A stretch of DNA of 64,000 nt from Dehalococcoidales bacterium (GCA_016783135.1 JADHXC010000004.1:2798-66797), one strand, 5' to 3'. Positions 18,004 to 42,018 are shown, counted from the first letter of the stretch. Numbers and translations are program-made. The notes: a model not told the origin generated them from the letters alone.

Positions 18004-18987
18004 CTACCCGCCTATCTGCCGCATCTGTCGTTTCGCGGGGACGACCTCTTCAGCGAGGTGGTGCTGCTCCTGCTTCAGGGTGGCCGCTTGCAGTATCAGT
18101 TGCTCCAACTCCTCGATGGTGGCACCGCGGCGCAGTGGGCCCTTGAGGTCGATTTCATCGTCGTCCAGGAGGCACGGTCGCAGGCCGCCGTCAGCAGTGA
18201 GGCGGAAGCGATTACACTCGGTGCAGAAGCACTCGGTTACCGCACCGATAAAGCCGAGCGTCCCGGTGGCTTCAGGTAGCTGGTAATACCTGGCGGGGCC
18301 GTTACCCGAGCTCGGGAAACAGGGGATGAGCTTGCCGAGTGACTGTTCAATAGTCGATATTATCTCACTTGTTGCAACTACTCCGTTGTCCTCAGCCGTG
18401 GAGCTAACGAACGGCATACACTCGATGAACCGCACATGCCAGCCGTCAGCCACTGTCTTTCTGGCGAAGTCCAGGATTTCGTCGTCGTTCACATCCCGGA
18501 GGGCCACCATGTTGAGTTTGACCGGATTCAGACCGACCTCTCTGGCAACCTCGATACCGTTGAGCACGTCCCGGAGTTTATCGCCTCTGGTGATTTGCTG
18601 AAACCTGTCTGCCTTCAGAGTATCCAGGCTGACATTGACCCTCTTCAGGCCAGCCGCTTTCAGCTCGGCGGCATGGTGGGCAAGGAGCGTGCCGTTGGTG
18701 GTCATCGAGACCTCGTCGATGCCCTCAACCCGCACAAGCATCTCGACCAGCCGGCTCAGGTGCAGCCGGGCAAGGGGTTCGCCACCGGTAAGGCGCACCT
18801 TCTGCACACCGAGGTGCGCGGCCGCCTGGACAACCCGAAGGATTTCCTCGTAGCGGAGAATATCATCGTGCGAAAGGTGCGGTGCTGACCTGCCTGAGCA
18901 ATAAATGCAGTCGAGGTCACAGCGGTCTGTGACCGAGATGCGCATGTAATTGATGCGCCGATGGTAAGAGTCAGCGAGTCCTATCAT
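18004..18987 (-). CDS. moaA: GTP 3',8-cyclase (radical SAM)
   Basis: 327 aa. The radical-SAM cluster is CDLDCIYC, followed by RLTGGEPL. The C-terminal auxiliary cluster is CFCTECNRFRLTADGGLRPCL. Confidence 0.93.
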   Translation of the reverse strand: MIGLADSYHRRINYMRISVTDRCDLDCIYCSGRSAPHLSHDDILRYEEILRVVQAAAHLGVQKVRLTGGEPLARLHLSRLVEMLVRVEGIDEVSMTTNGTLLAHHAAELKAAGLKRVNVSLDTLKADRFQQITRGDKLRDVLNGIEVAREVGLNPVKLNMVALRDVNDDEILDFARKTVADGWHVRFIECMPFVSSTAEDNGVVATSEIISTIEQSLGKLIPCFPSSGNGPARYYQLPEATGTLGFIGAVTECFCTECNRFRLTADGGLRPCLLDDDEIDLKGPLRRGATIEELEQLILQAATLKQEQHHLAEEVVPAKRQMRQIGG

Positions 18988-18996: not shown

Positions 18997-20127
18997 CTAT
19001 TCTACCGAAGAGCCAGCGGTCGGGCCGCCCTCCAGTCCTGTACTTTCTCGCCTGATAATGTGTACCGCCGTTGCCTTGAAAGTGGCGTAGACGCTCTTTC
19101 CCTTTTCCAGGGCCATCTCCTCGGCCGACCTCCTGGTTACCAGGGCTGCCAGCGTGAAGCCGCAGTCCACCTCAATGCGGGCAGTCGGTCCCGTGGCGAC
19201 CACGCGTGTGATTCGCCCGGTGAACGAGTTGCGGGCGCTGCTGGAGAGCCGCGATAGTGCCAGTGTGACCTCCTCGGCCCGGATACACGCGGAGACCTCC
19301 TCCCCGACGGGAAGGTCTGACAGCGCCTCCACCGGATTTCCTCCGACGTCTACGGTGACGACCCTGTCCTCGTTGGAAGCTATCACGCCGTTGAGGATAT
19401 TCTCCACGCCCACGAAATCGGCTATCTTCCGGGAGCGCGGTGCATTGAATACCTCTCGCCAGTCACCGGTCTGGAGGATTTCGCCATCGAGTAGCATACC
19501 CGCCCTGTCCGCCAGCCGCTGGCCCTGGGACAGGTCGTGGGTGGCCATTACTATTGTGGTATCGTGACGCTCGATGATACTGACAATCAGGTTTTCGATT
19601 CTCGCCGTCGAGACGGGGTCGAGATTTGCCGTCGGTTCGTCGAGCAGGAGTACCTCCGGTTCGGTAGCGATTGCCCTGGCAATAGCCACCATCTGCACTT
19701 CCCCACCGGATAGTGTCCGGGCGTTCCGTTTTCTGTCGGTGGTAAGCCCTACCATCTCCAGGACACGGTCAACCCGGATGCGGATGTCGCTCCGGGACAT
19801 TCCTCTCCATCTCAGGCCATAGGTAATATTGTCATAGACGGTGGTGTTGAATACCACCGGTTTCTGGAGCACGAAAGCCATCCGCCGCCGCGCTTCCAGC
19901 CGGAGTCTGGCCGATTCGGTAACGTCGGTACCGTCGAAGTAGAGCTGCCCGCGATCCGGCGTGTCAATAAGGTCGAGCAGCCGCAGCAGTGTGGTCTTTC
20001 CGGAGCCGGTCGGACCGATGAGGGCAAAGACCTCGCCCCGCTTTATCCTGATATTGATGTTCTTCAGGATATCCCGGTCACCACGCCGCTGGCACAGGTC
20101 AACGGTTTCTATTAAAGACATCATCAC
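18997..20127 (-). CDS. ABC transporter ATP-binding protein with C-terminal TOBE/Mop domain (tungstate/molybdate type)
   Basis: 376 aa. Walker A is GPTGSGKTT, the signature is LSGGE and Walker B is LLLDEP. The C-terminal part (~120 aa) looks like a TOBE fold. Confidence 0.88.
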   Translation of the reverse strand: MMMSLIETVDLCQRRGDRDILKNINIRIKRGEVFALIGPTGSGKTTLLRLLDLIDTPDRGQLYFDGTDVTESARLRLEARRRMAFVLQKPVVFNTTVYDNITYGLRWRGMSRSDIRIRVDRVLEMVGLTTDRKRNARTLSGGEVQMVAIARAIATEPEVLLLDEPTANLDPVSTARIENLIVSIIERHDTTIVMATHDLSQGQRLADRAGMLLDGEILQTGDWREVFNAPRSRKIADFVGVENILNGVIASNEDRVVTVDVGGNPVEALSDLPVGEEVSACIRAEEVTLALSRLSSSARNSFTGRITRVVATGPTARIEVDCGFTLAALVTRRSAEEMALEKGKSVYATFKATAVHIIRRESTGLEGGPTAGSSVE

Positions 20128-20869
20128 CTCTGCTGCAACCTGTTGAGGACGACGTTCACTACCAGGGCAATGAATATCAGGATTATGCCCAGGGCAAATG
20201 CCAGCTCCAGATTACCCTTGGAAGTTTCCAGTGATATTGCCGTGGTGAGCACCCTGCTCAAATCCACGATATTGCCACCAACCAGGAGGGCTATACCGAC
20301 CTCTGAGATTGCCCGACCGAACCCCATGATGACGGCGGCCACTACTGCGTACCTTGCCTCCCTGAAGACCACGGTTGCTGTCTGAACACCGCTAGCTCCC
20401 AGAGACCGGGCGGTATCCAGCATGGTCTGGTCAATCCCTCTCAGTGCCGAAATAGTCAGACCGAGCAGTATCGGCGTTATCAGCACCATCTGGCCGATTA
20501 CCATAACGGTGGGCGTGAACAGCAGGTTGAGTCCGCCCAGAGGACCGGCGCGAGAGAACACAGCAAATACAATCAGGCCGATAACGACGGTAGGGACGCT
20601 GTAGAATGTCTGGATTATGCTCACCAGTACACGTTTGCCGGGGAAGCGGTTGAAGTGAATCACGCTGGCCAGTGGCAGGCATATCAGCGTGGCGAGTACG
20701 GTCGAGGTCAGTGATATCCTCAGTGACCGTCCGGTTATCGCCAGTACCTCGGGGTCGAGGGAGATGATAAGCTCAACCGCCCTGGTCAGGCCGTTCCAGA
20801 TTTCAGCCAGTTTCTTGCTCCAAATGCTATTTCCCGGGGTAACCCTATCCCCTATACAGTCGGGGACAT
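20124..20869 (-). CDS. ABC transporter permease (TupB/ModB-like) with an apparent 1-nt frame break after codon 3
   Basis: The long frame reads ..AVELIISLDPEVLAITGRSLRISLTSTVLATLICLPLAS.. upstream of the first canonical start (GTG 20663) and has no ATG/GTG/TTG. The RBS-preceded ATG at 20869 is 1 nt out of frame across a C4 run (20862-20865). Confidence 0.7.
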
Positions 20870-20891
20870 CTTAACGAGCTTCCTCTCAGTG

Positions 20892-21842
20892 CTATTCAGG
20901 CTCGGCGCCGGCACAGGGGGTGAACAACTGCATACCGTACTCTTTGGCACCATAGTTACCGATGAGCTCCTGTACGTCTGGTGAGGTGAGGAAGGTTATC
21001 AGGTTGTTAGCCCTTTCGAAGTTGGCCTCACCCACGATGTCCGAATTTACGGCAATTGCAGAATAGACGTTGAGCAGTATCCCACCCTTGTCCACGATAG
21101 GCACCAGCTCCAGTTTGCCCTTGTAGGATAGATAGGTACCCATATCGGTGAGAGTGTAGGCTTGCTTCTCGCTGGCCATCATCAGGGTGGCTCCCATGCC
21201 GGTACCTGCCTCGATGTACCAGGACCCGGCACCACGGACTGCCTCGTAATCATAGCCGGCGGCTGCCCAGATTGCCTTTTCCCTGGAGTGCGTCCCGGAG
21301 TCATCGCCCCGGGAGACGAAGCTGGCGTTGCCGGTGTCCATCAGCTTCTCAAAGGTTTTTTCAGGGGTGAGTCCCTTGATTCCGGCGGGGTCGGCCTCCG
21401 GGCCGACGATAAGGAAGTAGTTATAGGCAAAGGGGACTCGCTCCACGCCATATCCTTCGGCGATGAATTCCAGCTCGTGGGTTTTGGAGTGGACGGTGAT
21501 GATGTGGACATCACCCCGGCGACCGTACTCCAGGGCTTTGCCGGTCCCGGCGTACATGACGTCCAGCTCGACGCCGTATTTGTCCTCGAACATAGGCTCG
21601 AGGTATCCCCAGAGTCCGGTATCGTAGAGACTGGTGGTCGTGGCCACCCTCACGGCAGCAGAGACCAAGCACCCGGTTAGTGTTGTCAAGATGCCCACGA
21701 CTAGCAGCAGGGCCGCTAGGGCGCTGGCAATCCTCAATCCGGGACCCCTTCCCAACAGGGATACAGGGAACCGGCAGATACGGACGTGGGATGACATTGG
21801 GCTATGGTGGGCAGTGAGGCACGCACGTGCGTGTATGATCAA
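20892..21842 (-). CDS. Tungstate/molybdate ABC transporter substrate-binding lipoprotein (TupA-like)
   Basis: VATTTSLYDTGL and RGDDSGTH anion-binding motifs are present, with a lipobox LTGC. The start is uncertain: TTG 21842 lies 6 nt after GGAGA, and the alternatives are ATG 21797 and TTG 21860. Confidence 0.8.
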   Translation of the reverse strand: MIIHARACLTAHHSPMSSHVRICRFPVSLLGRGPGLRIASALAALLLVVGILTTLTGCLVSAAVRVATTTSLYDTGLWGYLEPMFEDKYGVELDVMYAGTGKALEYGRRGDVHIITVHSKTHELEFIAEGYGVERVPFAYNYFLIVGPEADPAGIKGLTPEKTFEKLMDTGNASFVSRGDDSGTHSREKAIWAAAGYDYEAVRGAGSWYIEAGTGMGATLMMASEKQAYTLTDMGTYLSYKGKLELVPIVDKGGILLNVYSAIAVNSDIVGEANFERANNLITFLTSPDVQELIGNYGAKEYGMQLFTPCAGAEPE

Positions 21843-21845
21843 AAC

Positions 21846-21950
21846 CACTCTCCTTTCCAAGTCCGGGAGGCGTGAGGGTTTTCCCTCACACCCTATCGTT
21901 TGCCTCTCGTAGGTGGGACACCCTTAGAGAAGACAACTCGGAGACCGCTA
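21846..21950 (-). ncRNA. Candidate Moco/Wco (molybdenum-cofactor) riboswitch
   Basis: The minus strand reads GGUCUCCGAG...CCUACGAGAGGC...GUGAGGG-AAAA-CCCUCAC-GCCUCCCGGACUUGGAAAGGAGAG. The CUCCGAG / CCCGG / GGAAAGGAG blocks match my recollection of the Moco motif, and UCUCC pairs with the GGAGA Shine-Dalgarno. It is not confirmed by a covariance model. Confidence 0.5.
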
Positions 21951-22039
21951 TTCAGCTAAACGGGTTCTATCTTATGCTGTAATGCTATCATAAATATATC
22001 CTACTGGCTGGTGGCACGTCAACCATACGCTCCCGGCCT

Positions 22040-23540: not shown

Positions 23541-23615
23541 TGAAGGGGGTTCACCCCCTTCAAAACAACCATTCCCCCTTCCCAAGGGGAAGGGGGAAAA
23601 AGGGGGATGGGGTTA
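23541..23615 (+). repeat. Compound G5/C5 hairpin element, copy A
   Basis: Hairpin 1 is tttgaaggggg-ttca-cccccttcaaa (23539-23564). Hairpin 2 is cccccttccc-aag-gggaaggggg (23574-23596). The tail is aaaagggggatggggttacc. The architecture is the same as 43129-43210. Confidence 0.85.
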
Positions 23616-23650: not shown

Positions 23651-25108
23651 CTAACCGCCGAACATCTTGGCGGCGAACTCGGCGGCCTTCATGGCGAAGC
23701 CGGGGAGGATGCCGATGAAGAGGACACCGAGGCAGGTAATGGCCAGTGCCACACGCAACGCCCCTGAGGAGGGTACTTTCTCAGTGGAGGCAGGTTCACC
23801 GAGCCACATTACCTTGACCACTCTCAGGTAGTAGAAGGCCGATATCACGCTGTTGATGACGGCGATAATGACCAGCCAGAGCAGGTCGCTCTGCACCGCT
23901 CCACTGAAGATGTAGAACTTGGCCATGAACCCGGCTGCCGGGGGCATGCCAATCAGTGATATCAGGCACAGCGTCAGACCGAGGGCAAGGACCGGCGCCC
24001 GCTTGCTCATCCCGGAAAAGTCCGCAATCAGGTCGCTGTTAATCTTGTTGGTGATGGCAATGATGGCGATGAAGGCCCCCAGGTTAGCCATCGAGTAGCT
24101 TAACAGGAAGAACATGACCGTGCTCTGGTTGAGTGTGCTCGTGGCTGCTCCGACACCCATAGCGGCCAGACCGACCAGCAGATAGCCGGCCTGGGCGATG
24201 CTGGAGTAACCGAACATACGCTTGATATTAATCTGGGGTAAGGCGGAAATATTACCCACCGTCATACCGATAGCTGCCAGCGCGGCGAAGACCAGACCCC
24301 AGTTCATGCTCAGCCATTCCGGGGTACCGAATGCGGAGAAGAAGACGCGGAGTATGATGGCAAAACCGGCCGCCTTACTGGCCACGGACAGGTAACCGGT
24401 TATCGGGGTTGGCGCCCCTTCGTAGACGTCGGGCACCCACATCTGGAAGGGTACCGCGGCAATCTTGAAACCGAAGCCGGCAATCAGCAGGACCGCACCC
24501 AGCATAAGCGCCGGGTTATCGCCGACTCCCGTGGCACCGAGGTTCTGGACAGCCTGTGATATTTCGGCAAGCTGTGTGGTACCGGTCGAGCCAAAGACCA
24601 GCGCCATTCCATAGAGCAGTACTGCCGAGGAGGTTGCACCCAGCAGCAGGTACTTGATTGACGACTCCGTTGATTTGGGGTCTTTGAGGAACCCGGCCAG
24701 AACGTAGAGTGAGATACTGGCCAGCTCGAGGGCGATGTAGATGGTGATAAGCTCGGAACTGGCCGCCATGAGCATCATGCCCAGTGCGGAAAGGACTATC
24801 AGTGCGTAGTATTCACCCTGGAAGCGACTGAACTTGGGCGCGTAGTCGACAGAGGCCAGGATAACCAGAGCGGCAATCCCCAGGAAGAGAAGTTTGAAGA
24901 AGAGGGCAAAGTTGTCCACGGACAGCATGCCGTTGAATGCGGCCTCGGAGGTGCCCCAGAGAGCGATGGCAAAAACGGCGGACACCACCAGACCGATAAT
25001 ACTGAGAACCACCAGCACCCCTTTTCTCTCGATAAAGAGGTCAAGCAGTATCAGCACTACTGCGGTTGCTGCCAGGCTCAGTTCTGGTGCCAACAGCTCA
25101 AGATTCAA
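23651..25108 (-). CDS. nuoN: NADH-quinone oxidoreductase subunit N
   Basis: 485 aa polytopic antiporter-like subunit, last gene of the nuo operon. Confidence 0.9.
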   Translation of the reverse strand: MNLELLAPELSLAATAVVLILLDLFIERKGVLVVLSIIGLVVSAVFAIALWGTSEAAFNGMLSVDNFALFFKLLFLGIAALVILASVDYAPKFSRFQGEYYALIVLSALGMMLMAASSELITIYIALELASISLYVLAGFLKDPKSTESSIKYLLLGATSSAVLLYGMALVFGSTGTTQLAEISQAVQNLGATGVGDNPALMLGAVLLIAGFGFKIAAVPFQMWVPDVYEGAPTPITGYLSVASKAAGFAIILRVFFSAFGTPEWLSMNWGLVFAALAAIGMTVGNISALPQINIKRMFGYSSIAQAGYLLVGLAAMGVGAATSTLNQSTVMFFLLSYSMANLGAFIAIIAITNKINSDLIADFSGMSKRAPVLALGLTLCLISLIGMPPAAGFMAKFYIFSGAVQSDLLWLVIIAVINSVISAFYYLRVVKVMWLGEPASTEKVPSSGALRVALAITCLGVLFIGILPGFAMKAAEFAAKMFGG

Positions 25109-25132
25109 GACCTACTCCTTAGAAACACCGCT

Positions 25133-26641
25133 CTAACCGCCTATCAAGGCCACTATCGGCGAGATACCGAGTCTGATTATGTCTGTCATTATCGCCGGAT
25201 AGATACCGATTATCATTATCAGGATGACAAAGGCGAACATGTAGACCTTCTCCAGGTTATCGGCATCTTTGACACCGTTATATTGCTCCAGTACCGGACC
25301 GTAGAACGTTCGCTGTATCATCCACAGGATATAGCCGGCGGCGAGTACCACACCCAGCACTGCCAGGATAGTGAAGACCTCTGCGCCCCCAACGACCTTA
25401 CTGGAGAAGCTGCCGATGAAGGTGATGAATTCGGCGGCAAAGCCGCTGGTCAGCGGCAGACCCAGCGAGCCAAGACCGGCGATAGAAAACACGATGGCAA
25501 TGACCGACATCTGCCTGGCCAGTCCGCCTAGCTTCCTGAGGTCCCGCTCCTTGACATTGTGTATCATCAGGCCGGCCATGGCGAAGAGCAACCCGGTGAG
25601 CAGGCCGTGGCTGAGCATTTGCAGACCCGCTCCGGTCAGGCTTATCTCATTGAGGGCAAAGATGCCGAGCAGCACGTAGCCCATGTGGCTCACGCTGCTA
25701 TAGGCAATCATCCGCTTGAGGTCGGTCTGCCTCAGGGTCAGCGCCGCGCCGTATAGTATGCTGATTACGGCCAGCGTCATTAGCATCGGTGCGAAGCTGC
25801 GGGCTACGTCCGGGAAAATGCTCACGCAGACGCGTATCATCCCGTAGCCGCCCATCTTGATTAGCGCCCCGGCAAGCATCACGCTACCGGCAGTCGGTGC
25901 GTCGGTATGGGCGTCCGGGAGCCAGGTATGCAGCGGGAACACCGGCAGCTTGACGGCAAAGGCGATGATGAGGAGCCAGAAGATTGACGCCGCCGGCATG
26001 ATGGACTGCACCATGCCAAGCCCGCCCTCCGAAATATCCACCATGCTCAGGCTGCCGGTGGTGAAATACAGGCTCAGGATACCGGCCAGCATGAAGGCAC
26101 TGCCGAAAAGTGTGTAGAGAACGTACTTAATAGACGAGTACTCTTTTCGGCCCGTACCCCAGATGGATATCAGGAAGTACATCGGGATGACTTCTATCTC
26201 CCAGAAGACGAAGAAGAGCAGCAGGTCGAGCGAGCAGAATACGCCCAGGATGCTCGCCTCCAGGAGAAGCAACCAGGCGAAGTACTCGCGGACTCTCACG
26301 TGGACCTTCCACGAGATAAGTATCACCATGAAGCCGAGGAAGGCCGTCAGCAGCACCAGCGGTGCGCTCAGGCCATCCACGCCCAGGTGGTAGTTGGCGA
26401 CCAGGTGGTGGTTGGCATTGAAGGCGGCATCAATCCAGCCGACCTTGTCCACGAACTGGAACCCCTCGAGCGTACGGTCGAAAAGGCTGAACATGGCGAC
26501 CGCAAAGCCAAGCGGGACAAGAGTGAAGATGGCTGAAAGCCACCGTATCAGCCTGTCGGACAATCCCGGGATGAAGGCAACCAGTACTGCCCCCACCATG
26601 GGCACAAAGACTATCGCAGTGAGAATGCCACTAAACTCCAA
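25133..26641 (-). CDS. nuoM: NADH-quinone oxidoreductase subunit M
   Basis: 502 aa antiporter-like subunit (HTWLPDAH motif). Confidence 0.9.
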   Translation of the reverse strand: MEFSGILTAIVFVPMVGAVLVAFIPGLSDRLIRWLSAIFTLVPLGFAVAMFSLFDRTLEGFQFVDKVGWIDAAFNANHHLVANYHLGVDGLSAPLVLLTAFLGFMVILISWKVHVRVREYFAWLLLLEASILGVFCSLDLLLFFVFWEIEVIPMYFLISIWGTGRKEYSSIKYVLYTLFGSAFMLAGILSLYFTTGSLSMVDISEGGLGMVQSIMPAASIFWLLIIAFAVKLPVFPLHTWLPDAHTDAPTAGSVMLAGALIKMGGYGMIRVCVSIFPDVARSFAPMLMTLAVISILYGAALTLRQTDLKRMIAYSSVSHMGYVLLGIFALNEISLTGAGLQMLSHGLLTGLLFAMAGLMIHNVKERDLRKLGGLARQMSVIAIVFSIAGLGSLGLPLTSGFAAEFITFIGSFSSKVVGGAEVFTILAVLGVVLAAGYILWMIQRTFYGPVLEQYNGVKDADNLEKVYMFAFVILIMIIGIYPAIMTDIIRLGISPIVALIGG

Positions 26642-26680
26642 GCCTGCTGACTCCTATCAAATCCTTTAGCCTATAAATAC

Positions 26681-28645
26681 TCATCCGAAGATATACAGGA
26701 TAATGGCAATCGCGGATGCCCCCAGGGCAATGGACAGCGCGTACAGTTGAAACTGTCCCGTCTGCACCTTGCGGACCACGTCTCCACTGGACATTATAGC
26801 ATTGGCTGCTCCATTCACCACCCCGTCGACACCTCTGGTATCCAGCTTCTGAAGTCCGGCGAAGAACCCCCCGAGCAGTGCCTTTCGCACGATTAAGTCT
26901 TCGTACAGTTCGTCCATCCAGTACTTCCGCGAGAACATCACGTATAGCGCCTGGAACCTGGCACCAATGCGTTCCGCAGAAATCTTTTTGGTATTGTACA
27001 TCAGGTAGGCAAGCAGAATACCGCCCAGCGCCAGCAGTAGCGATATAATCGGCCACGGCGAGTGGGTGAATATGCCGAAGAACCCGTCAATGAAACTCTT
27101 CGTATGTCCGTGCCCCATGAGCTCTCCGAAGTGTCCGAAGGCATTCCAGAAACCGGCCACGACCGCCAGGACGGCCAGGAAGACCAGGGGAGCCACCATG
27201 ACCTTCGGCGATTCGTGCGGGTGACCGTGTGCCTCCGGGTCGCCGCCGCGGTACTTCCCGTGGAAGGTCATGTAGATAACGCGGAACATGTAGAAGGCGG
27301 TCATGAACACGGTTATCATTGCCAGAATAAAGAGGACAACATTCCCGTCCAGCGCTGTTACCAGGATTTCGTCCTTGCTCCAGAAACCAGCCAGAGGCCA
27401 GACTCCTGCCAGGCTCAGAGAGCCGAGGAGGAAGGTGATATACGTCCAGGGCATTATCTTGCGCAGGCCGCCCATCAGCCGCATATCGAACGTTCCGGTG
27501 GCATGGTTGACGCTGCCCGCCCCAAGGAACAGGAGCGACTTGAAGAAGGCGTGGGTGGCTAAGTGGAAGATACCGAAGGTGGTGGCGGCCTTGGCCGCCT
27601 CTACTGTAACGTTTCCTTCATGGAAAAGTATGATACCAGCCGCCCCCAGCCCGAGCATCATGTAGCCAAGCTGGCTGATGGTGGAATAGGCAAGCACACG
27701 CTTTATATCGTTCATAACCAGGCCCATTGAGGCCGCAAAGATGGCCGTAAACCCTCCGATGGTCGCCACCACGGTTACTGCCTCGAGGGAGTGGGCGAAT
27801 ATCGGGAAGGTGCGGGCTACCAGGAACACGCCCGCCGAGACCATCGTCGCGGAATGGATAAGGGCGCTGACCGGTGTCGGACCTTCCATGGCATCCGGCA
27901 GCCAGATGTGGAACGGGAACTGGGCTGATTTACCCATCGCTCCGGCGAAGATACCGATAGCCACCCAGGTGAGGGTGGCGCCGGCGAGTGCACCCGCTGC
28001 CGCCAGACCGCTCAGTTCCGCAGTGTCAAACGTCCCAGTGTTGGCGAAGAGGAGCAGTATCGCTACCAGGAAACCGAAATCGCCAAACCGGGTGACGATG
28101 AAGGCTTTCTTGGCAGCGTTGGCTGCGGACGGTTTGTGGAACCAGAAACCGATAAGCAGATACGAGCACAGACCGACCATCTCCCAGAAGACGAACATCA
28201 TGAGGAGGTTGTTGGCAATGACCAGGCCCAGCATGGAGGCGGTGAAAAGGGACATCCAGGCGTAGTACCGGGTGTAGCCCGCTTCATCATGCTGCATGTA
28301 GCCCAACGAGTATATCTGTACCATCAGGCTGACGACGGTGACCACGACCAGCATCACGGCGGTCAGCGAGTCCATTATGATGCCCAGATTGATTGTGAAG
28401 TCACCGATAGTCAGCCAGGGTGCGTTGTTTATGGTGACATCCGGCAGTATGATTTCGTGGTTCGGTGCTCCCATCACTTCGGTCAGTGCCCAGATGGAAA
28501 GTACAGCCGAAGCACCAATGGCCGTAATAGCTATCAAGCCCGATACGCTTGATTTGGAGTTAACGAACGGCCTGATAAAGAGACTTATCAGTCCAAACGA
28601 AATCACGGGCAGCAGGAATATGAACCAGTATGCTTGGTCCGGCAT
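26681..28645 (-). CDS. nuoL: NADH-quinone oxidoreductase subunit L
   Basis: 654 aa, with HIWLPDAMEGPTPVSALIH and a long C-terminal lateral-helix region. Confidence 0.9.
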   Translation of the reverse strand: MPDQAYWFIFLLPVISFGLISLFIRPFVNSKSSVSGLIAITAIGASAVLSIWALTEVMGAPNHEIILPDVTINNAPWLTIGDFTINLGIIMDSLTAVMLVVVTVVSLMVQIYSLGYMQHDEAGYTRYYAWMSLFTASMLGLVIANNLLMMFVFWEMVGLCSYLLIGFWFHKPSAANAAKKAFIVTRFGDFGFLVAILLLFANTGTFDTAELSGLAAAGALAGATLTWVAIGIFAGAMGKSAQFPFHIWLPDAMEGPTPVSALIHSATMVSAGVFLVARTFPIFAHSLEAVTVVATIGGFTAIFAASMGLVMNDIKRVLAYSTISQLGYMMLGLGAAGIILFHEGNVTVEAAKAATTFGIFHLATHAFFKSLLFLGAGSVNHATGTFDMRLMGGLRKIMPWTYITFLLGSLSLAGVWPLAGFWSKDEILVTALDGNVVLFILAMITVFMTAFYMFRVIYMTFHGKYRGGDPEAHGHPHESPKVMVAPLVFLAVLAVVAGFWNAFGHFGELMGHGHTKSFIDGFFGIFTHSPWPIISLLLALGGILLAYLMYNTKKISAERIGARFQALYVMFSRKYWMDELYEDLIVRKALLGGFFAGLQKLDTRGVDGVVNGAANAIMSSGDVVRKVQTGQFQLYALSIALGASAIAIILYIFG

Positions 28646-28839
28646 TAGAGTTTCCTTAACACCTCGCTAATCACGTGCTCCTTGTCCTGAGGTACCAGGA
28701 TGCGGTAGGTGGTCGCCTCCTGGCCTATCGGCAGACCAGACTCAGGCATAAGCCGGGTGGGTATACCTTCACCCTCGAAGAACTCTTTCCACATCTCCGC
28801 CATCATTAGATTAGGCGCTTTCTTAATCTCAACCCACAT
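28645..28839 (-). CDS. DUF2007-like small protein embedded between nuoK and nuoL
   Basis: 64 aa. The pattern MAEMWKEFFEGEGIPTRL....YRILVPQDKEHVISEVL resembles the DUF2007 'putative signal-transducing' fold. Its stop overlaps the nuoL start as TAATG, and its start lies 6 nt after the nuoK stop. Confidence 0.6.
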   Translation of the reverse strand: MWVEIKKAPNLMMAEMWKEFFEGEGIPTRLMPESGLPIGQEATTYRILVPQDKEHVISEVLRKL

Positions 28840-28845
28840 TGTCTG

Positions 28846-29157
28846 TTACCGTTTCATCAGGTTTATTTCCGTGGAATCGACGGTCCCACGCTGGCGATAG
28901 AGCGCGATGATTATCGCCAGGCCCACGGCGGCTTCGGCTGCCGCCACTGCCATGATGAATATCACGAAGACCTGTCCGGTCAGCTCTACCGGTGCGATGT
29001 ACCGGGAGAAGGCCACCATGGCGATATTCACCGCATTCAGCATTATCTCAATGCACAGCAGGATAGCTATCATGTTACGCTTGGCAAGTGCCCCGTAGAG
29101 CCCTATGGCGAACAGGACTGCCGAAAGCGCCAGGTAATGTTCCAGACCTACAGACAT
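28846..29157 (-). CDS. nuoK: NADH-quinone oxidoreductase subunit K
   Basis: 103 aa, three TM helices, conserved Glu in ..[15 protein letters not shown].. Confidence 0.9.
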
Positions 29158-29162
29158 CTTGC

Positions 29163-29651
29163 TTACTTCTCCCTGACCAGTACGATAGCCCCGAGAATCG
29201 CCGCCAGCAGCAGCACGGCGGCAATCTCCACAGACAATATATAGCCGTTTTCACCGAAGAGCTTGCCCGCCAGTTCCGTAGTGGTCGGTTCCAGTGGTGC
29301 CACTGCGGATATCTGCCACGGGGTATTGAACACGGCAAAGCACACCGTTCCCAGGAAAACCAGGGCGGCAGCCACCGCGGGAATGCGCAATTTATTAGCC
29401 GGATTACCATGCTGGATATCGCGGGTAAGCATGATGCCCAGGATTAGCAATATCGAAATGGCACCGACATAGACCAGGATCTGCACTGCCGCCAGGAAGT
29501 CGGCGCTCAGTGTAATGTAGAGTCCGGCCACAGTTATAAAGCACAGCACCAGGGAAAGCGCCGCCCGGAAGACGTCACGCAGCATGACTACCGCCAGCGC
29601 AGCGGCCACGCCGACAACGGCCAACAGCCAGAATGCAACATCCAGTGGCAT
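29163..29651 (-). CDS. nuoJ: NADH-quinone oxidoreductase subunit J
   Basis: 162 aa membrane subunit at the canonical operon position. Confidence 0.88.
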
Positions 29652-29657
29652 CAGTGC

Positions 29658-30152
29658 CTACTCCTTCCTTTCAATCAACAGGGTCTGCTCCGGCAGCGTA
29701 TCATCGAGTTCGGGGTGGAAATAGCTGCTGGGTTTCCTGCCATCCATCATAAGCTGGTCCCTTTTGAGCATCAGGGCACCCCGCCGGTATTTTGCCAGTT
29801 CAAAAGCGTAGCCCATGAACAGGGCGTTGTACGGGCAGGCCTCCACACAGAGGCCGCAGGAGATACAGTACCCCGTGTCCACTTCAAACTTTTCAACCGT
29901 GTAGTTATTTTCCTCACCCGGGGACGTCTCGATATGGATGACCCCCTGGGGGCAGGTCTTGGCGCAGGTAGCGCACCCGGTGCACTTCTCCTTGTCCCAG
30001 ATAAGCTCATTACCGCGGGTCCGGCGCGAAACCACCAGCCTCTGTTCCGGGTACTGTGTGGTTACCCGGCGCCGTACCAGATTCCTGAGGGTTACCGTGA
30101 GGCCTTTGGCGATGCCGGCCCCGTATCGTTCAAACTTCAACTCTACCCCCAC
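29658..30152 (-). CDS. nuoI: NADH-quinone oxidoreductase subunit I (2x[4Fe-4S])
   Basis: CTGCATCAKTCP and CISCGLCVEACP are present. Confidence 0.92.
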   Translation of the reverse strand: MGVELKFERYGAGIAKGLTVTLRNLVRRRVTTQYPEQRLVVSRRTRGNELIWDKEKCTGCATCAKTCPQGVIHIETSPGEENNYTVEKFEVDTGYCISCGLCVEACPYNALFMGYAFELAKYRRGALMLKRDQLMMDGRKPSSYFHPELDDTLPEQTLLIERKE

Positions 30153-31257
30153 CCAGCTTGGAGAGTCTGGACCACAGCAATATGAGCACGCCCAACATGG
30201 CGAAATTAATCGGGATAATGTACAGCGGCAGGTCTCCAGGCCACGCCAGGATTTCCAGTGCCGTGACCAGCAGGTTAATCAGCGCCAGCGGGAAGAGGAA
30301 CTTCCACGCCAGTGCCATAAGCTGGTCTATCCTGACACGCGGTAACGTAGACCGTGTCCATACCATAGTGAAGAATACCAGGAGTATCTTGACGATGAAC
30401 CATAGCCACGGCGGCAGGACCGGACCCTGCCAGCCGCCGAGGAAGAGCGTGGTGATTATGGCGGACATGACCACTGCTTCGCCATACTCGCCCAGGTAAA
30501 ACATGGCGAACTTCATACCGGAATACTCGGTGTGGAAACCGGCGGTAAGCTCCGAATCTGCCTCCATGAGGTCAAACGGGCTGCGGTTTATCTCCGCACA
30601 GCCGCCGACGAAGAGGAGGAAGAACCCGAGGGGCTGCAGGATGATGAAGGGTACTCTCTCCTGTGCCAGTACGATGTCATTCAATGAAAGCGAACCGGCC
30701 AGCAGCACGACTCCAGCGATAGAGAGGACGACGGGCATCTCGTAGCTGACGACGGCGGCCACGTTTCGCATCGCACCTAGCAGGGAGTACTTGTTGCTCG
30801 AACTCCAGCCGGCCATAAACACCCCGATGGTGGATATCGAGCTGATGGCGATAACGAAGAGGACGCCGATGTCGAGGTCAGCCAGCATGGCACCGTTCTG
30901 GAAAGGCACTACGGCAAATATCATTATCACCGGGGCGAAGACCACCGCCGGCGCCAGCCAGTAGACCAGCTTATCGGCATTGGACGGCGTGATATTTTCC
31001 TTGAGCAGTACCTTGATGGCATCCGCTATTGCCTGGAGCACACCGAAGGGGCCGGTCCGGTTGGGGCCGACCCGCGCCTGGAAGAATGCTATGCCCCGCC
31101 GCTCTACGTAGATGACGACGATAACCATCACCAGCACAAAGACAATACAGATAACGGTGAAAACCAGCCAGTGCCACCACTCGTTCCCCGGCCAGTCCGG
31201 GGGCACGGCATTCAGGTGGCGCATAGCGCCGGAGAAAACAGTATCAAGCGCGGTCAC
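30130..31257 (-). CDS. nuoH: NADH-quinone oxidoreductase subunit H
   Basis: 375 aa. RVGPNRTGPFGVLQ..AD and NRSPFDL.EADSEL motifs are present. Confidence 0.92.
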   Translation of the reverse strand: MTALDTVFSGAMRHLNAVPPDWPGNEWWHWLVFTVICIVFVLVMVIVVIYVERRGIAFFQARVGPNRTGPFGVLQAIADAIKVLLKENITPSNADKLVYWLAPAVVFAPVIMIFAVVPFQNGAMLADLDIGVLFVIAISSISTIGVFMAGWSSSNKYSLLGAMRNVAAVVSYEMPVVLSIAGVVLLAGSLSLNDIVLAQERVPFIILQPLGFFLLFVGGCAEINRSPFDLMEADSELTAGFHTEYSGMKFAMFYLGEYGEAVVMSAIITTLFLGGWQGPVLPPWLWFIVKILLVFFTMVWTRSTLPRVRIDQLMALAWKFLFPLALINLLVTALEILAWPGDLPLYIIPINFAMLGVLILLWSRLSKLGGGRVEV

Positions 31258-32360
31258 TATCTGTCAACCTCACCCATAGTAATAGCAAAGCTACCAAAGA
31301 TGAGAATCAGGTCCTGTATTTTCCACCCGATTATCATATCACGCAGGGCTGTCAGGTTCATCAGGCTGGGTGCCCTGATATGGCACCGGTACGGGGCGAT
31401 GGAACCATCGGACACCAGGTGGAAACCCACTTCTCCCGTGGGTGCTTCGACGTGGGCATAGGCCTCACCAACCGGCGGGCGGACCAGGTGCGGTACGTCG
31501 CTCCGTATCTCTCCGGACGGTATCTGTTCCATTGCCTGCTCGATGATACGCAGGCTCTGCCTCATCTCTTCTACCCTGACGCGATAGCGGTCGTAGCAAT
31601 CGCCCTGGATGCCGGTGGGTATATCGAATTCAAAGCGGTCGTAGATGGAGTAAGGGTCTGCCTTACGTATGTCCCATTTCACTCCGCTGCCGCGAAGCGT
31701 TGGTCCGCTGGCACCGATGTTAATCGCCAGGTCCCGCGGCAGTATACCCACACCTTTGGCGCGGACCAGCAGTATCTCATTCTCTTTGAGGAGCCGGTCA
31801 TACTCGTCTATACGTTCGCGCATGCGGGGGATGAATTTACGCAGGGCCGGCAGAAACTCCTCGGGAATGTCATGGCTAACACCGCCGATACGCATGTAAT
31901 TATAGAGCAGGCGCTGGCCGCAGACCATATCAAAGAGGTCGCAGATGTTCTCCCGTTCGCGGTACATGTAGAGGAACGGTGTGAAATATGCTCCGCAGTC
32001 GTTAAAGAATGAACCGACGGATACCAAGTGGGCGGCGATGCGCTGTAGCTCGGACATGATGACCCGGAGGTATTCGGCCCGCTCCGGAATGGGAATACCG
32101 GCCAGCTTCTCCACGGTGAGGACATAGGCCAGGTTGTTGGTCATCGAAGCCACGTAGTCGAGGCGGTCCGTCAGTGGGATAACCCCGCCATAGGTGCGCT
32201 CCTCGGCCAGCTTTTCAATGCCCCGGTGCAAATAGCCAAAGACCGGGTCCAGGTCAAGGACGACCTCTCCGTCGAGGGTGGCCCTCATCCGGAATACGCC
32301 GTGCGTACTCGGATGCACCGGTCCGATATTGAGAACAAACGGCTCTGTTCTCAGTTCCAT
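31257..32360 (-). CDS. nuoD: NADH-quinone oxidoreductase subunit D
   Basis: 367 aa. NIGPVHPSTHGVFR and GYLHRG.EKL motifs are present. Confidence 0.93.
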   Translation of the reverse strand: MELRTEPFVLNIGPVHPSTHGVFRMRATLDGEVVLDLDPVFGYLHRGIEKLAEERTYGGVIPLTDRLDYVASMTNNLAYVLTVEKLAGIPIPERAEYLRVIMSELQRIAAHLVSVGSFFNDCGAYFTPFLYMYRERENICDLFDMVCGQRLLYNYMRIGGVSHDIPEEFLPALRKFIPRMRERIDEYDRLLKENEILLVRAKGVGILPRDLAINIGASGPTLRGSGVKWDIRKADPYSIYDRFEFDIPTGIQGDCYDRYRVRVEEMRQSLRIIEQAMEQIPSGEIRSDVPHLVRPPVGEAYAHVEAPTGEVGFHLVSDGSIAPYRCHIRAPSLMNLTALRDMIIGWKIQDLILIFGSFAITMGEVDR

Positions 32361-32801
32361 CTACATGAAGTCCTTTCGCTGCGGGTGTCCTTGAAAGTCC
32401 GACCAGAGGACGATACGCTTCATGTTCGGGTGGCCTTTAAACGTAATCCCCATAAGGTCGTAGATTTCCCGTTCCTGGTGGTCGGCACTCCGCCAGAGGC
32501 CGACCAGCGACGGCAGTGTGAGGTTGTCACGACCCTGGCAACGGGTCTTGATGACCAGGCTGTGATTGTGCTCAATGGAGACGAACAGGTAGACAACCTC
32601 GAAGTACTGGTAGTAGTCAACCGCCGTGATTGTGGTCAGGTAGTCGAAGTCGAGCCCCGGGGTATTCTTGAGAAAGGCACCCACATCCAGCAAGGAGTCG
32701 CTGTCAACGAGAATAGCAGTGCCGGTAGCATCAATGACTGCATCCGGCAGTCGTTCGCTAATTTGTCCGGCAATCTCCCGGGTGGATAGAGAAGTAGTCA
32801 T
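32361..32801 (-). CDS. nuoC: NADH-quinone oxidoreductase subunit C
   Basis: 146 aa. ..W.SADHQEREIYDLMGI.F.GHP.. is present. Confidence 0.9.
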   Translation of the reverse strand: MTTSLSTREIAGQISERLPDAVIDATGTAILVDSDSLLDVGAFLKNTPGLDFDYLTTITAVDYYQYFEVVYLFVSIEHNHSLVIKTRCQGRDNLTLPSLVGLWRSADHQEREIYDLMGITFKGHPNMKRIVLWSDFQGHPQRKDFM

Positions 32802-32827
32802 CTGCCTTTCTTATCGGATAGTGCTTT

Positions 32828-33019
32828 TTATATTTTCTCCAACTCGGCTTCAGGAAAAGCCATGTTGTAGCCGGTGCTGTCCGCCTTCATAATGACATAA
32901 TCGGCGGGGTCTTCCTTTACTTCAACAATTTCGCCTTCCCAATTGGCGATTTTATATCCTCCGGGCCAACCCGGCCTATCCAGAACCCTGGCCCTGTCAC
33001 CCACACTGAACTTGGCCAT
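32828..33019 (-). CDS. Small SH3-like (PsaE/NdhS-reminiscent) protein embedded between nuoB and nuoC
   Basis: 63 aa: MAKFSVGDRARVLDRPGWPGGYKIANWEGEIVEVKEDPADYVIMKADSTGYNMAFPEAELEKI. The ATG is preceded by GAGGAGGGGAGG. It starts 38 nt after the nuoB stop and ends 26 nt before the nuoC start. The ORF-track start at 33145 overlaps nuoB and was rejected. Confidence 0.6.
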   Translation of the reverse strand: MAKFSVGDRARVLDRPGWPGGYKIANWEGEIVEVKEDPADYVIMKADSTGYNMAFPEAELEKI

Positions 33020-33057
33020 CGCCTCCCCTCCTCGTTCTAAGGTTAATATGCGGCAGG

Positions 33058-33657
33058 CTATTCCTTGATGATATTGGTTCTCTTGGCTATCTTCTCCTGC
33101 AGCATCTGTATACCGTGCAGCAGGGCCTCGGGACGCGGCGGGCAACCGGGCACGTAAACATCAACCGGAATTATACGATTATACCCTGGTACTACGTTGT
33201 AGGAAGAGCGGAAGATACCGCCGCTGATACCGCAGGCACCCATGGCGATAACCCATTTCGGCTCCGCCATCTGATTATATATCCGTCTTACGTTGGGTGC
33301 CATCTTCCAGGTCAGCGTGCCCGCGGTAATCAATACGTCTGCCTGACGCGGCGAGGCACGCAGGATTTCCATACCGAAACGGGACATGTCGAAACGGGGG
33401 CCCATCACGGAAATAAACTCGAAGGCGCAGCAGGCCGGGAAGCAGATGACCGGCCACAGTGAGGAACGTCGCCCCCAGTTGATTAACCAGTCGGCGGTGG
33501 TCAGCAGTATATTCTGGCTCAGCTCTTCGTCCAGCCAGGCATCAGGGTCCGAGAGCGGTTCCATGGCACCGGCCTTCAGTTCCTCGATGACCTTGCTCTC
33601 GGACTGGTCGAGTTCCGAATCCGAATAGACGTAGTCCCTGGCTCTGCTTACTTCCAT
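33058..33657 (-). CDS. nuoB: NADH-quinone oxidoreductase subunit B
   Basis: SLWP..F..ACCAFE, GACGISGG and PGCPP N2-cluster motifs are present. Starting at MEVSR (33657) gives a short overlap with nuoA. An acidic ~45-aa N-terminal extension remains. Confidence 0.9.
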   Translation of the reverse strand: MEVSRARDYVYSDSELDQSESKVIEELKAGAMEPLSDPDAWLDEELSQNILLTTADWLINWGRRSSLWPVICFPACCAFEFISVMGPRFDMSRFGMEILRASPRQADVLITAGTLTWKMAPNVRRIYNQMAEPKWVIAMGACGISGGIFRSSYNVVPGYNRIIPVDVYVPGCPPRPEALLHGIQMLQEKIAKRTNIIKE

Positions 33658-34019
33658 TCTAGAACTCTCTTCCTCCAGGCGTAAAGGTAACCAACAACAA
33701 TGAGGGCGATGAAGATAAGTACTATAATGAAACCGGAAGTCCCGAGGTCCCTCACATTGACCGCCCACGGATAGATAAACGCGACCAGTACATCCAGGGC
33801 CAGGAAAATCAGGGCGTAGAAGTAGTAGCGAAAGTTGAACTGTACCCACGTCTTCCCGATGGTTTCCATGCCGCACTCAAACGTGGCGTTCTTGACAGCG
33901 TTGGGATGGTGGGGAACTAGCTTGAGGTATCTGAATACAACGGGAAGAATAATTAAAAGGAGACTAAAAAGAACGGCAACAATGATGAAGAGTCCGACGA
34001 AACCGTAATCAGAGAGCAA
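33648..34019 (-). CDS. nuoA: NADH-quinone oxidoreductase subunit A
   Basis: 123 aa, three TM helices, FECG motif. The TTG start lies 6 nt after AAGGGGGG. Confidence 0.9.
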   Translation of the reverse strand: MLSDYGFVGLFIIVAVLFSLLLIILPVVFRYLKLVPHHPNAVKNATFECGMETIGKTWVQFNFRYYFYALIFLALDVLVAFIYPWAVNVRDLGTSGFIIVLIFIALIVVGYLYAWRKRVLEWK

Positions 34020-34081: not shown

Positions 34082-34819
34082 GATAGATTCGGTAACAGTT
34101 TCTTTTGACGCAACACGGATGGATTCGGTATAAGGTAGGCCGACCTTTAAGAGGCACTGGTTGAAGACAACAGCGCCTCTTAAATAAGACCTCCCAGGTA
34201 CCTTGTTACCCGGCAACTTTTCGGTCCTGCTACTACCTTTTGGCTTACACCTACTCAGTTGCCACTCTTCCAATTAGTTACCAATAATTCGGGTACCTGG
34301 GAGGGTGTAACTATATGGCATGCCCAGAGGAGTTGTCAAAGCAATTGACAGCCCAGGAGCAGTATACCAGACGATTCCTGACCAGTATGAGGCCATCTGG
34401 CTGCACATTACTCTTACTTGCTTCGCCTATCTTCGTCGGACGTCGGCTTTCTTTCTATGGTGCTAACCTGCCGCGGTTGCCAGACTGTCGGGCCAGTTCG
34501 CCTTGAGCCCTGGTATCGAGCGAAACGCGGCATCGTGAGGTGTCAAATGACTGTTCTCAACCACATCAAGAGAGCGCAACGCCTGTCTTGACTGAGGTGT
34601 ACCCCATCCTTAGGGTAGGATAGGGGCTGTACTAAGAGAGGGATGCCAACCTTAACCCCCATTTCCTGTGTATTCTCTTTATGACGCCTCCTTGTTGCAT
34701 TACCTACAACGTAAGTCTCGCGGGTTCTGAGCCGTCGTCGGCTGGGCAACCATAAGATGAGGTAGGATGGAAAAGATGGACACCGAAGTCAGGTAAAATA
34801 GAAAGACGGAGGTGTCAGA

Positions 34820-34966
34820 ATGAAAGGGGTTCCGCACGGAAGGTACACGAAGGAGTTTCGAGAAGAAGCGGTGAAACTGGTAACGGAAGGGAATCTATCC
34901 TTACCGGAGGCAGCCCGCCGGCTGTCGGATTGCTTCGCTGTCTATTCGCTCCGGCCCATAGTTTAA
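34820..34966 (+). pseudogene. IS3-family transposase OrfA N-terminal (HTH) remnant
   Basis: My own translation gives MKGVPHGRYTKEFREEAVKLVTEGNLSLPEAARRLS..., which is the typical IS3/IS911 OrfA HTH. It then degenerates and stops after 48 codons, and no OrfB follows. Confidence 0.6.
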
Positions 34967-40662: not shown

Positions 40663-40770
40663 ACTGACTTTATTTCACACACTAAGGTTATACGTTCTCC
40701 TTGAGTTCACCGGCTTGATTCACTATACTTGCGGTATAGTACGGGTTGGCATTCCTTGGGGGTGGCCGAT

Positions 40771-41964
40771 ATGTCCCTGGACCTTACGAAGCTCATTTCC
40801 CAGGTGGGCGACATGGTGGCTCGGCTGAAGGCCAGAGGCCGGGAGCGTCAGGAACGCCTTGAGCATGCCCGGGAGGCCCTCGGCAGGTATGCCGGTGACG
40901 TGGATGCCCTCAGAAACAAGATTGATGCCAGCCGTACCACCTGGCTGGTGGCCGGTCTGGTGGATGGGCTTGACGGGCATCACGGGGCGCCTGCCACGCC
41001 CGCCGACTTCACCGTGGTTGCCACTGACGGCTCCCATATCGACGTTGACCGGCACCGTGCCGCCCGGTGCTACCTGATAAACATCGGCTCGGTGGTGCTG
41101 CGCTACGGTACCAGTCCGGCAGCCGTTCTGGACAGCCAGCCCAGTCTCTATTCCGGGGATGAGGACCTGGTGATTGCCGCACCCGGAGTGCGCGGTCGTG
41201 AGCAGGTGATTGAGGGTGCGCTCCTGGGCATGAAGCGTGCCGTCGATGAAGCCCGTCGTCTGTCCGAGTTGGCGGCCGAGACGTCAACGGATAGCCCGAC
41301 CGTGGCACTGCTCGACGGCTCTCTGATACTCTGGGGACTGGAGCCATACCCCGAGTTCGTCACCGAGGAGTTGCTGGACAAAGGGTTCCTGAGGTGTCTG
41401 GAGAGACTGCGCAAGCTGAGCGGGGAGAGACAGCTTGCTGTGGCGAGCTACATCAGCTTTCCCCGCAGTATGGATGTCGTCAATGCCCTGCGGGTGGCGC
41501 TCTGCCCCCGGGAGACAGTCGACAGCGACCGCTGCCTGACCTGTGAGACCAGGGAATGCGACGCCGTGGCCGGTGTTCGCGACCGCGAGCTTTTTGCCGG
41601 GCTGCTTGAACCGGGGGAGAGGTCGGACACCTTCATCAGCTCCTCCAAAATCCAGAGTCGGTACGGCCCCCACCAGGTCCACTTCTTTTATCTGAACGTG
41701 GATAACGAGGTTGCCCGGATTGAGGTGCCTCACTGGGTGGCAACCAGCGAAAGTCTGCTTGGCCTTACCCACAGCCTTATCCTTGACCAGTGCCGGCGCG
41801 GACACGGCTACCCGGTGGTGCTGAGTGAGGCCCACGAGAAGGCGGTTGTCACCGGCGCCGACGCCGCCAGCTTCTGGCGGCTGGTGGAATCGTCCCTAGT
41901 GGAGGAAAAACTGCCCACCACCGGCTCGGCAAAGAGCTGGAGCAAGAGAACGAGGTGGGTCTAG
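40771..41964 (+). CDS. nurA: NurA-domain 5'-3' nuclease
   Basis: VVATDGSHIDVDRH (catalytic DGS) and VALLDGSLILWGL are present, with a later ..GYPVVLSEAHEKAVV.. block. Start chosen at ATG 40771; the ORF track gives 40729. Confidence 0.75.
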   Translation: MSLDLTKLISQVGDMVARLKARGRERQERLEHAREALGRYAGDVDALRNKIDASRTTWLVAGLVDGLDGHHGAPATPADFTVVATDGSHIDVDRHRAARCYLINIGSVVLRYGTSPAAVLDSQPSLYSGDEDLVIAAPGVRGREQVIEGALLGMKRAVDEARRLSELAAETSTDSPTVALLDGSLILWGLEPYPEFVTEELLDKGFLRCLERLRKLSGERQLAVASYISFPRSMDVVNALRVALCPRETVDSDRCLTCETRECDAVAGVRDRELFAGLLEPGERSDTFISSSKIQSRYGPHQVHFFYLNVDNEVARIEVPHWVATSESLLGLTHSLILDQCRRGHGYPVVLSEAHEKAVVTGADAASFWRLVESSLVEEKLPTTGSAKSWSKRTRWV

Positions 41965-42018
41965 CCATTACTTACGGAAGTACATGCTCGTAGTAAGGAG
42001 AGAACGGCTGTAGACGAC

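Follow-up and report, generated by a model that had tools for sequence, protein, structure and literature searches.

Two conserved small genes embedded in the nuoEFG-less nuo operon of a Dehalococcoidales bacterium

We analysed a 64,000-nucleotide stretch of DNA from a Dehalococcoidales bacterium (GCA_016783135.1 JADHXC010000004.1:2798-66797; hereafter the window), which carries an operon for a complex I of the Nuo type. The operon runs from 34019 to 23651 on the minus strand as a single 13-gene unit in the order nuoA-B-sORF1-C-D-H-I-J-K-sORF2-L-M-N, in which sORF1 and sORF2 are two small non-canonical open reading frames (ORFs). The original prediction for this locus had described 13 co-directional, tightly packed ORFs, eleven of them canonical Nuo subunits, and had put forward the other two as candidate adaptors of the kind through which complex I relatives without NuoE, NuoF and NuoG use ferredoxin or F420. 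The layout held up on inspection. All 13 ORFs lie on the minus strand within 23651-34019, and Pfam together with NCBIfam subtypes identified eleven of them as NuoA, B, C, D, H, I, J, K, L, M and N.

The unit begins with nuoA (33648..34019; 123 amino acids (aa); Pfam Oxidored_q4, E 5.7e-30), within the end of which nuoB starts, giving an overlap of 10 nucleotides (nt). We place the start of nuoB (33058..33657; 199 aa; Oxidored_q6, E 8.8e-28; NCBIfam NuoB) most likely at the ATG at 33657, replacing an earlier call of a 272-aa ORF from a GTG codon. sORF1 (32828..33019; 63 aa) follows after 38 nt and is separated by 26 nt from nuoC (32361..32801; 146 aa; Complex1_30kDa, E 2.3e-39), which abuts nuoD (31257..32360; 367 aa; Complex1_49kDa, E 3e-94). 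One nucleotide is common to nuoD and nuoH (30130..31257; 375 aa; NADHdh, E 3.7e-118), and nuoH overlaps nuoI (29658..30152; 164 aa), which was assigned by Pfam and NCBIfam and is of the plain form with two CxxCxxCxxxCP motifs. Short spacers of 6 nt and 5 nt precede nuoJ (29163..29651; 162 aa; Oxidored_q3, E 2.6e-31) and nuoK (28846..29157; 103 aa; Oxidored_q2, E 1.1e-29), respectively. Six nucleotides separate the end of nuoK from sORF2 (28645..28839; 64 aa), whose stop codon overlaps the ATG of nuoL as TAATG. The unit is completed by nuoL (26681..28645; 654 aa; Proton_antipo_N and Proton_antipo_M), nuoM (25133..26641; 502 aa; Proton_antipo_M, E 8.7e-75) 39 nt downstream and, after a further 24 nt, nuoN (23651..25108; 485 aa; Proton_antipo_M, E 2.1e-68). 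On the same strand, a sigma-70-like promoter candidate lies upstream of nuoA (34310..34339; TTGACA-18-TATAGT), proposed purely as a consensus match at 11 of 12 positions, and a hairpin resembling an intrinsic terminator (23572..23598; 12 bp with 8 GC pairs, then a T-run) lies 53 nt past the nuoN stop. Relative to the near-identical relative L082 (we cite surveyed loci by L numbers), the window has an insertion of approximately 800 nt upstream of nuoA (34119-34916), in which we found no credible ORF, no Rfam match and no terminal repeats.

The catalytic core of the encoded complex looks intact. As read from the sequence, NuoB keeps the cysteines of the N2 cluster (ACCAFEF, GACG and GCPP), NuoI has its two 4Fe-4S motifs, and the quinone-site residues His20 and Tyr69 are retained in NuoD, which is devoid of the cysteine motifs that bind NiFe in hydrogenases. 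We take His20 and Tyr69 to correspond to His38 and Tyr87 of Thermus Nqo4, at a constant offset of 18. The core scores as bacterial Nuo over Ndh, with 517 bits for NuoD against 401 bits for NdhH in NCBIfam. NuoB also has an acidic N-terminal extension of approximately 45 aa (33520-33657) with the motif PDPDxWL, which an N-terminal alignment showed to be conserved in all of the Dehalococcoidia operons that we surveyed. We note that, in many of these NuoB proteins, including that of the window, ICFPACC replaces the usual FGLACC at the tandem N2 cysteines.

The NADH-oxidising N-module is not encoded nearby. As had been claimed, nuoE, nuoF and nuoG are absent across the 64 kb: among the approximately 60 ORFs scanned we found no NuoE, NuoF or NuoG domain. 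The flavin mononucleotide motif of NuoF, GGAGF[PS], was not found in the window and had no credible match in the 160 related loci that we checked for it (one match, in L043, was spurious). Beyond NuoI, the window has 4Fe-4S motifs only in an EtfA with a ferredoxin domain and in an ORF resembling QueG and reductive dehalogenases. The latter is a 325-aa iron–sulfur (Fe–S) protein (14790-15767, minus strand) with weak similarity to both families, under the cut-off of each. The former belongs to the Acd/EtfB/ferredoxin-domain-EtfA set that had been suggested as a source of reduced ferredoxin, and we confirmed this set at 304-3527 on the plus strand. Its EtfA carries an N-terminal 2x[4Fe-4S] ferredoxin domain, and the best-scoring NCBIfam entry is that for the Etf subunits of acryloyl-CoA reductase. 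Etf proteins that bifurcate electrons typically have such an architecture, and bifurcation here is putative; a link of Nuo to the Acd/Etf genes, which lie approximately 20 kb away, is something we only infer.

A Nuo complex without NuoEFG is in itself already known from this group. The 11-subunit enzyme has been documented in Dehalococcoidia (PMC5736913, PMC4959651, PMC6005880), with the same nuoABCDHIJKLMN set and no nuoEFG in D. mccartyi CBDB1 and in the single-cell genomes DEH-C11, DscP3 and Dsc4, and Nuo complexes that lack the N-module occur in many other phyla as well (PMC5736913, PMC4959651, PMC6005880, PMC3144371). One related Chloroflexi genome carries both an N-module-less Nuo and NuoEFG (PMC5736913), and NuoEFG encoded elsewhere in the genome could be a possible alternative donor route. 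In the papers searched, the Dehalococcoidia enzyme has 11 subunits and no embedded small genes are mentioned, whereas the operon in the window has 13 genes. What is new here are the two embedded small genes, which were previously undescribed; the literature that we searched contained no mention of embedded nuo ORFs, of DUF2007 in connection with complex I or of DET0931.

Both small ORFs, which had been predicted between nuoB and nuoC and between nuoK and nuoL, proved to be real and conserved, as judged from the ratio of nonsynonymous to synonymous substitution (dN/dS), homologues, start sites and gene calls; a fixed position in the operon and confident AlphaFold2 (AF2) models add to the case for both. 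All of their homologues come from metagenome-assembled genomes (MAGs) of Dehalococcoidia and are annotated as ‘hypothetical protein’. We found 805 homologues of sORF2 and 216 of sORF1, with a further 110 of the latter in a second clade; lengths are near-constant, at 63–64 aa (59 aa in the distant sORF1 clade). At saturated synonymous sites, dN/dS was ~0.10 for sORF2 and ~0.11 for sORF1, compared with 0.11 for NuoK and 0.13 for NuoA. Conservation of the small proteins matches or exceeds that of flanking core subunits, a level that would fit proteins buried in interfaces. The complete 2.30-Mb chromosome CP070842.1 (GCA_020342155.1) carries an identical 13-gene operon in the same gene neighbourhood, and its annotation includes both small genes. 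Contigs from marine-sediment metatranscriptomes cover sORF2, the nuoK–sORF2 junction and the nuoB–sORF1 junction, although this support is modest because the contigs come from near relatives and DNA carry-over is possible. On these data, purifying selection acts on both sORF1 and sORF2, which are genuine, co-transcribed genes whose products are small soluble proteins.

We surveyed related operons with a NuoD-seeded scan, taking one genome per species. This yielded 80 loci, all from Dehalococcoidia or Chloroflexota MAGs, with NuoD proteins 69–90% identical; we located the 13 proteins by tblastn and mapped features on the NuoD tree. A separate metagenome scan seeded with sORF2 returned 80 loci as well. 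The order nuoK-sORF2-nuoL was found in 73 of the 73 metagenome loci with flanks on both sides, the other seven lying at contig ends, and among the approximately 47 genome loci with a plain NuoI that cover nuoK to nuoL, sORF2 was present in all but one (L031). The conserved synteny that the original prediction proposed as a check is therefore strongly borne out for sORF2, which is, on this distribution, effectively a dedicated and near-universal twelfth nuo gene of the lineage.

The sORF2 protein has no cysteine, transmembrane segment or cofactor motif. Its AF2 model (mean predicted local distance difference test (pLDDT) score 90.8) shows a beta-alpha-beta-beta-alpha order, and a Foldseek search against the PDB gave no significant match. 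The DUF2007 structure 2hfv appeared at rank 19, with a query-normalized template modelling (TM) score of 0.67 and an E value of 0.82. Against the DUF2007 profile (PF09413), sORF2 of the window scored 14.3 bits and a relative (P0128) 20.8 bits, both under the Pfam cut-off of 25.7, and several homologues bear a precomputed PF09413.16 flag. In NuoJ, K, L, M, N and H, only conservative substitutions were tied to loss of sORF2. The nuoK–sORF2 position can hold further genes: an extra conserved 51-aa hydrophobic ORF (MNKGNVG..GWLFTIGFANLVWWKIILG) lies there in some relatives (L030:13498-13653, L027:3743-3898 and L019:3623-3826) and a 240-aa ORF in L039.

For sORF1, we settled on the 63-aa frame that starts from the ATG at 33019, which is preceded by a strong Shine–Dalgarno site (GAGGAGGGGAGG), and not on the 105-aa ORF with a TTG start of an earlier call. 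The protein is acidic and likewise has no cysteine, transmembrane segment or cofactor motif. Its AF2 model (pLDDT 86.5) forms an SH3-like barrel of five strands, for which Foldseek against the PDB returned KOW domains of NusG/Spt5 and SH3 domains (best E value 1.6e-3, TM 0.65–0.77); as modelled, sORF1 is a generic SH3-like small barrel. NCBIfam holds no family for sORF1 or sORF2. Pfam searches with the sORF1 family gave only sub-threshold matches to SH3/KOW and to the ferredoxin–thioredoxin reductase variable chain, and a search of its profile against PDB sequences placed a PsaE chain at an E value of 0.61, which is not significant. Some homologues carry a precomputed PF26460 flag, a family on which we found nothing in the literature searched. 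When the sORF1 profile was run with HMMER against 1.84 billion representative sequences, only 65 were retrieved at E ≤ 1e-3. NdhS, the ferredoxin-docking subunit of cyanobacterial NDH-1, was compared with sORF1 by profile alignment (hhalign), using the NdhS sequences Tlr0636 and Ssl0352 taken from the PDB. Membership of sORF1 in the NdhS family was not supported: the alignment spanned the whole domain at a probability of 0.5% and an E value of 0.11, and there was no NdhS match in Pfam. Neither NdhS nor PsaE was among the top 50 Foldseek matches of the model.

Wherever sORF1 is present, in all surveys, it sits between nuoB and nuoC; in loci without it, the nuoB–nuoC gap is usually less than ~100 nt, leaving no room for the gene. 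The sORF1-bearing loci form two clades, the window's own (L001, L002, L003, L005 and L006) and a distant one (L048, L049, L059, L061, L063, L068 and L069), in which the 59-aa protein shows 57–62% identity. We observed one subunit feature that tracks the presence of sORF1, and no other. In the window, Thr308 of NuoD (31437-31439) replaces the usual lysine of the PKGE motif, which we equate with PRG in NiFe hydrogenases, taking its lysine to be Lys407 in the Yarrowia 49-kDa subunit. Across the two clades, threonine occupies this position of EAPKGE in most operons that carry sORF1 (Thr 15 and Lys 5 with sORF1, compared with Lys 60, Arg 4, Gln 4 and Thr 1 without it). The pattern suggests a tie between sORF1 and the pocket of the Q-module, with the qualification that the counts are phylogenetically structured. 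Another gene is found in the neighbourhood: L061 has, between nuoC and nuoD, a gene for a B12-binding radical-SAM protein of approximately 570 aa with a CxxxCxxC motif (8284-10011), and this gene is found at the same position in L039, L048, L049, L058, L059, L063, L068, L069, L073, L078 and L080, a clade that includes every member of the second sORF1 clade. It may serve to mature or modify the complex.

The survey also pointed to where electrons may enter. Eleven of the 80 related genomes encode an enlarged NuoI of 590–640 aa (L038:12155-14065; also L008, L014, L033, L041, L044, L055, L056, L062, L064 and L077). Exactly between the two cluster motifs, these proteins contain a GltD/NfnB-like module (Fer4_20 and Pyr_redox_2; NCBIfam ‘NAD(P)-binding protein’, 487 bits), an NAD(P)H–FAD module that adds two extra Fe–S motifs. 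In L077, NuoH is fused too, for a total of 1003 aa. This natural fusion points to the NuoI surface as the place where electrons enter the complex in this lineage, and in organisms that have it the predicted electron donor is NAD(P)H. NuoI of the window is plain and must therefore receive its electrons by way of a separate protein. sORF2 is missing in eight of the ten fusion operons that cover nuoK to nuoL, compared with the single plain operon L031. We downgraded this anticorrelation to a hint after mapping it on the NuoD tree, where it amounts to approximately two independent events; sORF2 and the fusion occur together in L008 and L014 and are both missing from L031.

Several known systems bear on the two small proteins, and the nearest precedents are unidentified reading frames (URFs) of alphaproteobacteria, Nqo15 of Thermus and NdhS, NdhO and NdhV of cyanobacteria. 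The nqo cluster of Paracoccus denitrificans and the nuo cluster of Rhodobacter capsulatus hold small, co-transcribed URFs. Like the sORFs, these are non-canonical ORFs among nuo genes, but they belong to another phylum and to a 14-subunit enzyme with an N-module, and we liken them by gene position alone. Nqo15, which is frataxin-like, and Nqo16 of Thermus likewise supplement a bacterial complex I as soluble or small supernumerary subunits restricted to one lineage; they differ in fold, are encoded outside the nqo operon and did not appear among the Foldseek matches of either sORF. In Thermus thermophilus, Nqo15 is thought to stabilize the enzyme (PMC3144371). The ferredoxin-dependent NDH-1 of cyanobacteria and chloroplasts likewise has no N-module and contains small, soluble subunits without cofactors (NdhS, NdhV and NdhO), of which NdhS is an SH3-like barrel close in size to sORF1. 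It differs in that ndhS is not embedded in the operon, there is no detectable sequence homology and sORF1 is phyletically patchy. Mbx-like operons, in which a GltD-related flavoprotein replaces NuoI (PMC4758237), share a GltD-type NAD(P)H module at the NuoI position with relatives of the window, although in these Dehalococcoidia the module is inserted within an otherwise complete NuoI, and NuoI of the window is plain. In other systems, namely archaeal Fpo/Fqo (with FpoF or FqoF) and Campylobacter (with NuoX and NuoY), an alternative input protein replaces NuoEFG.

The absence of cysteines and cofactor motifs means that neither sORF1 nor sORF2 can carry electrons. A redox adaptor of the FpoF/FqoF type is thereby excluded, FpoF being a flavin and Fe–S protein of ~350 aa and the two small proteins having 63–64 aa and no cysteine. 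Beyond this exclusion, the adaptor idea of the original prediction is neither confirmed nor refuted; sORF1 belongs to the same fold class as NdhS, with no detectable homology. Without a redox centre, stabilizing, assembling or docking-surface roles are what is left. On the reading that we favour, which we hold with as much belief as doubt, the complex of this lineage has two supernumerary proteins of its own, sORF1 and sORF2. sORF2 would be a constitutive, nuo-exclusive partner made in step with NuoL by translational coupling, and sORF1 would be an optional SH3-like add-on in the NuoB/C/D (Q-module) region. Together they might stabilize the complex, aid its assembly or shape a docking surface, with a separately encoded partner delivering electrons at NuoI. 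For that partner, reduced ferredoxin, or else a detachable NAD(P)H flavoprotein, seems the most likely donor.

Several observations weigh against this reading. sORF1-like barrels also occur outside nuo operons, as stand-alone proteins of ~70 aa and at the C terminus of MaoC/FAS1-type hotdog proteins of ~470 aa (P0360, P0393, P0404 and P0409). The domain thus does not belong to complex I by nature, and its fold is not specific to that enzyme. sORF1 was present in only 12 of the 74 genome loci in which both nuoB and nuoC were covered, and a gene that is missing from most orthologous operons is therefore dispensable; its identity between the two clades equals that of NuoB and NuoC, and the whole pattern fits an old gene that was repeatedly lost. 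Synteny, which the original prediction had expected to be conserved for both ORFs, thus holds for sORF1 as regards its fixed position, whereas its absence from most operons is half of what that prediction had named as grounds for refutation. Profile comparisons and Foldseek searches gave no detectable homology to NdhS, PsaE or any solved accessory subunit of complex I. In D. mccartyi, no predicted Nuo subunit was detected in complexome gels (PMC6005880), and the Nuo enzyme may be of low abundance.

Other explanations fit some of these data. There is next to no probability that the two ORFs are fortuitous or are artefacts of annotating the spacers between genes: both are short and match no curated family above threshold, but hundreds of homologues of conserved length, a fixed position, confident AF2 folds and a dN/dS of ~0.1 at saturated synonymous sites stand against it, and conservation has already refuted it. 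We think it unlikely that sORF1, and perhaps sORF2, is an adaptor beside NuoI that docks a donor by binding reduced ferredoxin, in analogy to NdhS, NdhV and NdhO. In favour of such docking are the fold class that sORF1 shares with NdhS and PsaE, the whole-domain span of the NdhS alignment, the weak sub-threshold matches to PsaE and the ferredoxin–thioredoxin reductase variable chain, the lack of an N-module encoded nearby, and the absence of sORF2 from eight of ten operons with GltD input as opposed to one (L031) of the ~47 with plain NuoI. However, hhalign gave NdhS a probability of only 0.5% with no Pfam match, both NdhS and PsaE ranked outside the top 50 in Foldseek, and most operons that equally lack NuoEFG do without sORF1. 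The link of sORF2 to the fusion also reduces to the two or so events noted above, with L008, L014 and L031 as counter-examples, and sORF2 lies among membrane-arm genes, coupled to nuoL instead of nuoI.

Assembly factors or chaperones that are not part of the mature enzyme, with sORF2 serving NuoL and sORF1 serving NuoB/C/D, would account for the operon positions and the translational coupling to nuoL, for the dispensability of sORF1 in many lineages, for the co-occurrence of the B12-radical-SAM maturase-like gene in the second sORF1 clade and for the threonine that usually takes the place of the catalytic-pocket lysine of NuoD in sORF1-bearing operons. High conservation over the whole length suggests permanent contacts on several surfaces instead, searches of Pfam, NCBIfam and PDB profiles turned up no relative among the known assembly factors of complex I, and we judge this explanation improbable. 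It is very unlikely that sORF2 is a signal-sensing regulator of the PII/DUF2007 type that gates the complex in response to a metabolite. The weak DUF2007 scores of the window protein and P0128, the PF09413 flags on several homologues and the match of 2hfv to the model (TM 0.67) point that way, but no score reaches the 25.7-bit cut-off, the protein, at only 64 aa, shows no evident loop or motif for binding a ligand, and the function of DUF2007 is itself untested. There is also a bolder reading, which we consider quite unlikely: sORF2, the N-terminal extension of NuoB and, where present, sORF1 would make up a Dehalococcoidia-specific platform at which reduced ferredoxin, or a detachable flavoprotein that uses NAD(P)H, docks to feed the complex. 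Such a platform would have evolved independently of cyanobacterial NdhS, NdhV and NdhO while matching them in function.

Dehalococcoidia are among the most abundant bacteria of the subsurface, and systematic partner searches for the electron donor of the 11-subunit complex I that is widespread in anaerobes have failed (PMC3144371). Our analysis yields two testable candidates for extra subunits and makes the question of the missing partner testable in this lineage, in which the GltD-like insertion of relatives provides a natural marker of the entry point at the NuoI face. If the docking platform were true, the small proteins would be the partners that have long been sought for the 11-subunit enzyme, here in one of the major lineages of the subsurface; if they are only structural or assembly partners, the outcome is a modest refinement of annotation.

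Elsewhere in the window, Rfam searches, which included the long region upstream of nuoA, identified only a molybdenum cofactor (Moco) riboswitch (68.7 bits; 21834-21955, minus strand). It lies upstream of genes for a modABC-like molybdate transporter (18997-21860), with moaA (18004-18987) and moaC (11619-12092) near by. A corrinoid (B12-binding) protein is encoded next to a methyltransferase-like gene of the URO-D family (8195-9983, plus strand), and a nuclease and helicase pair, NurA (40729-41964) and HerA (44439-46034), occupies 40729-46034 on the plus strand.

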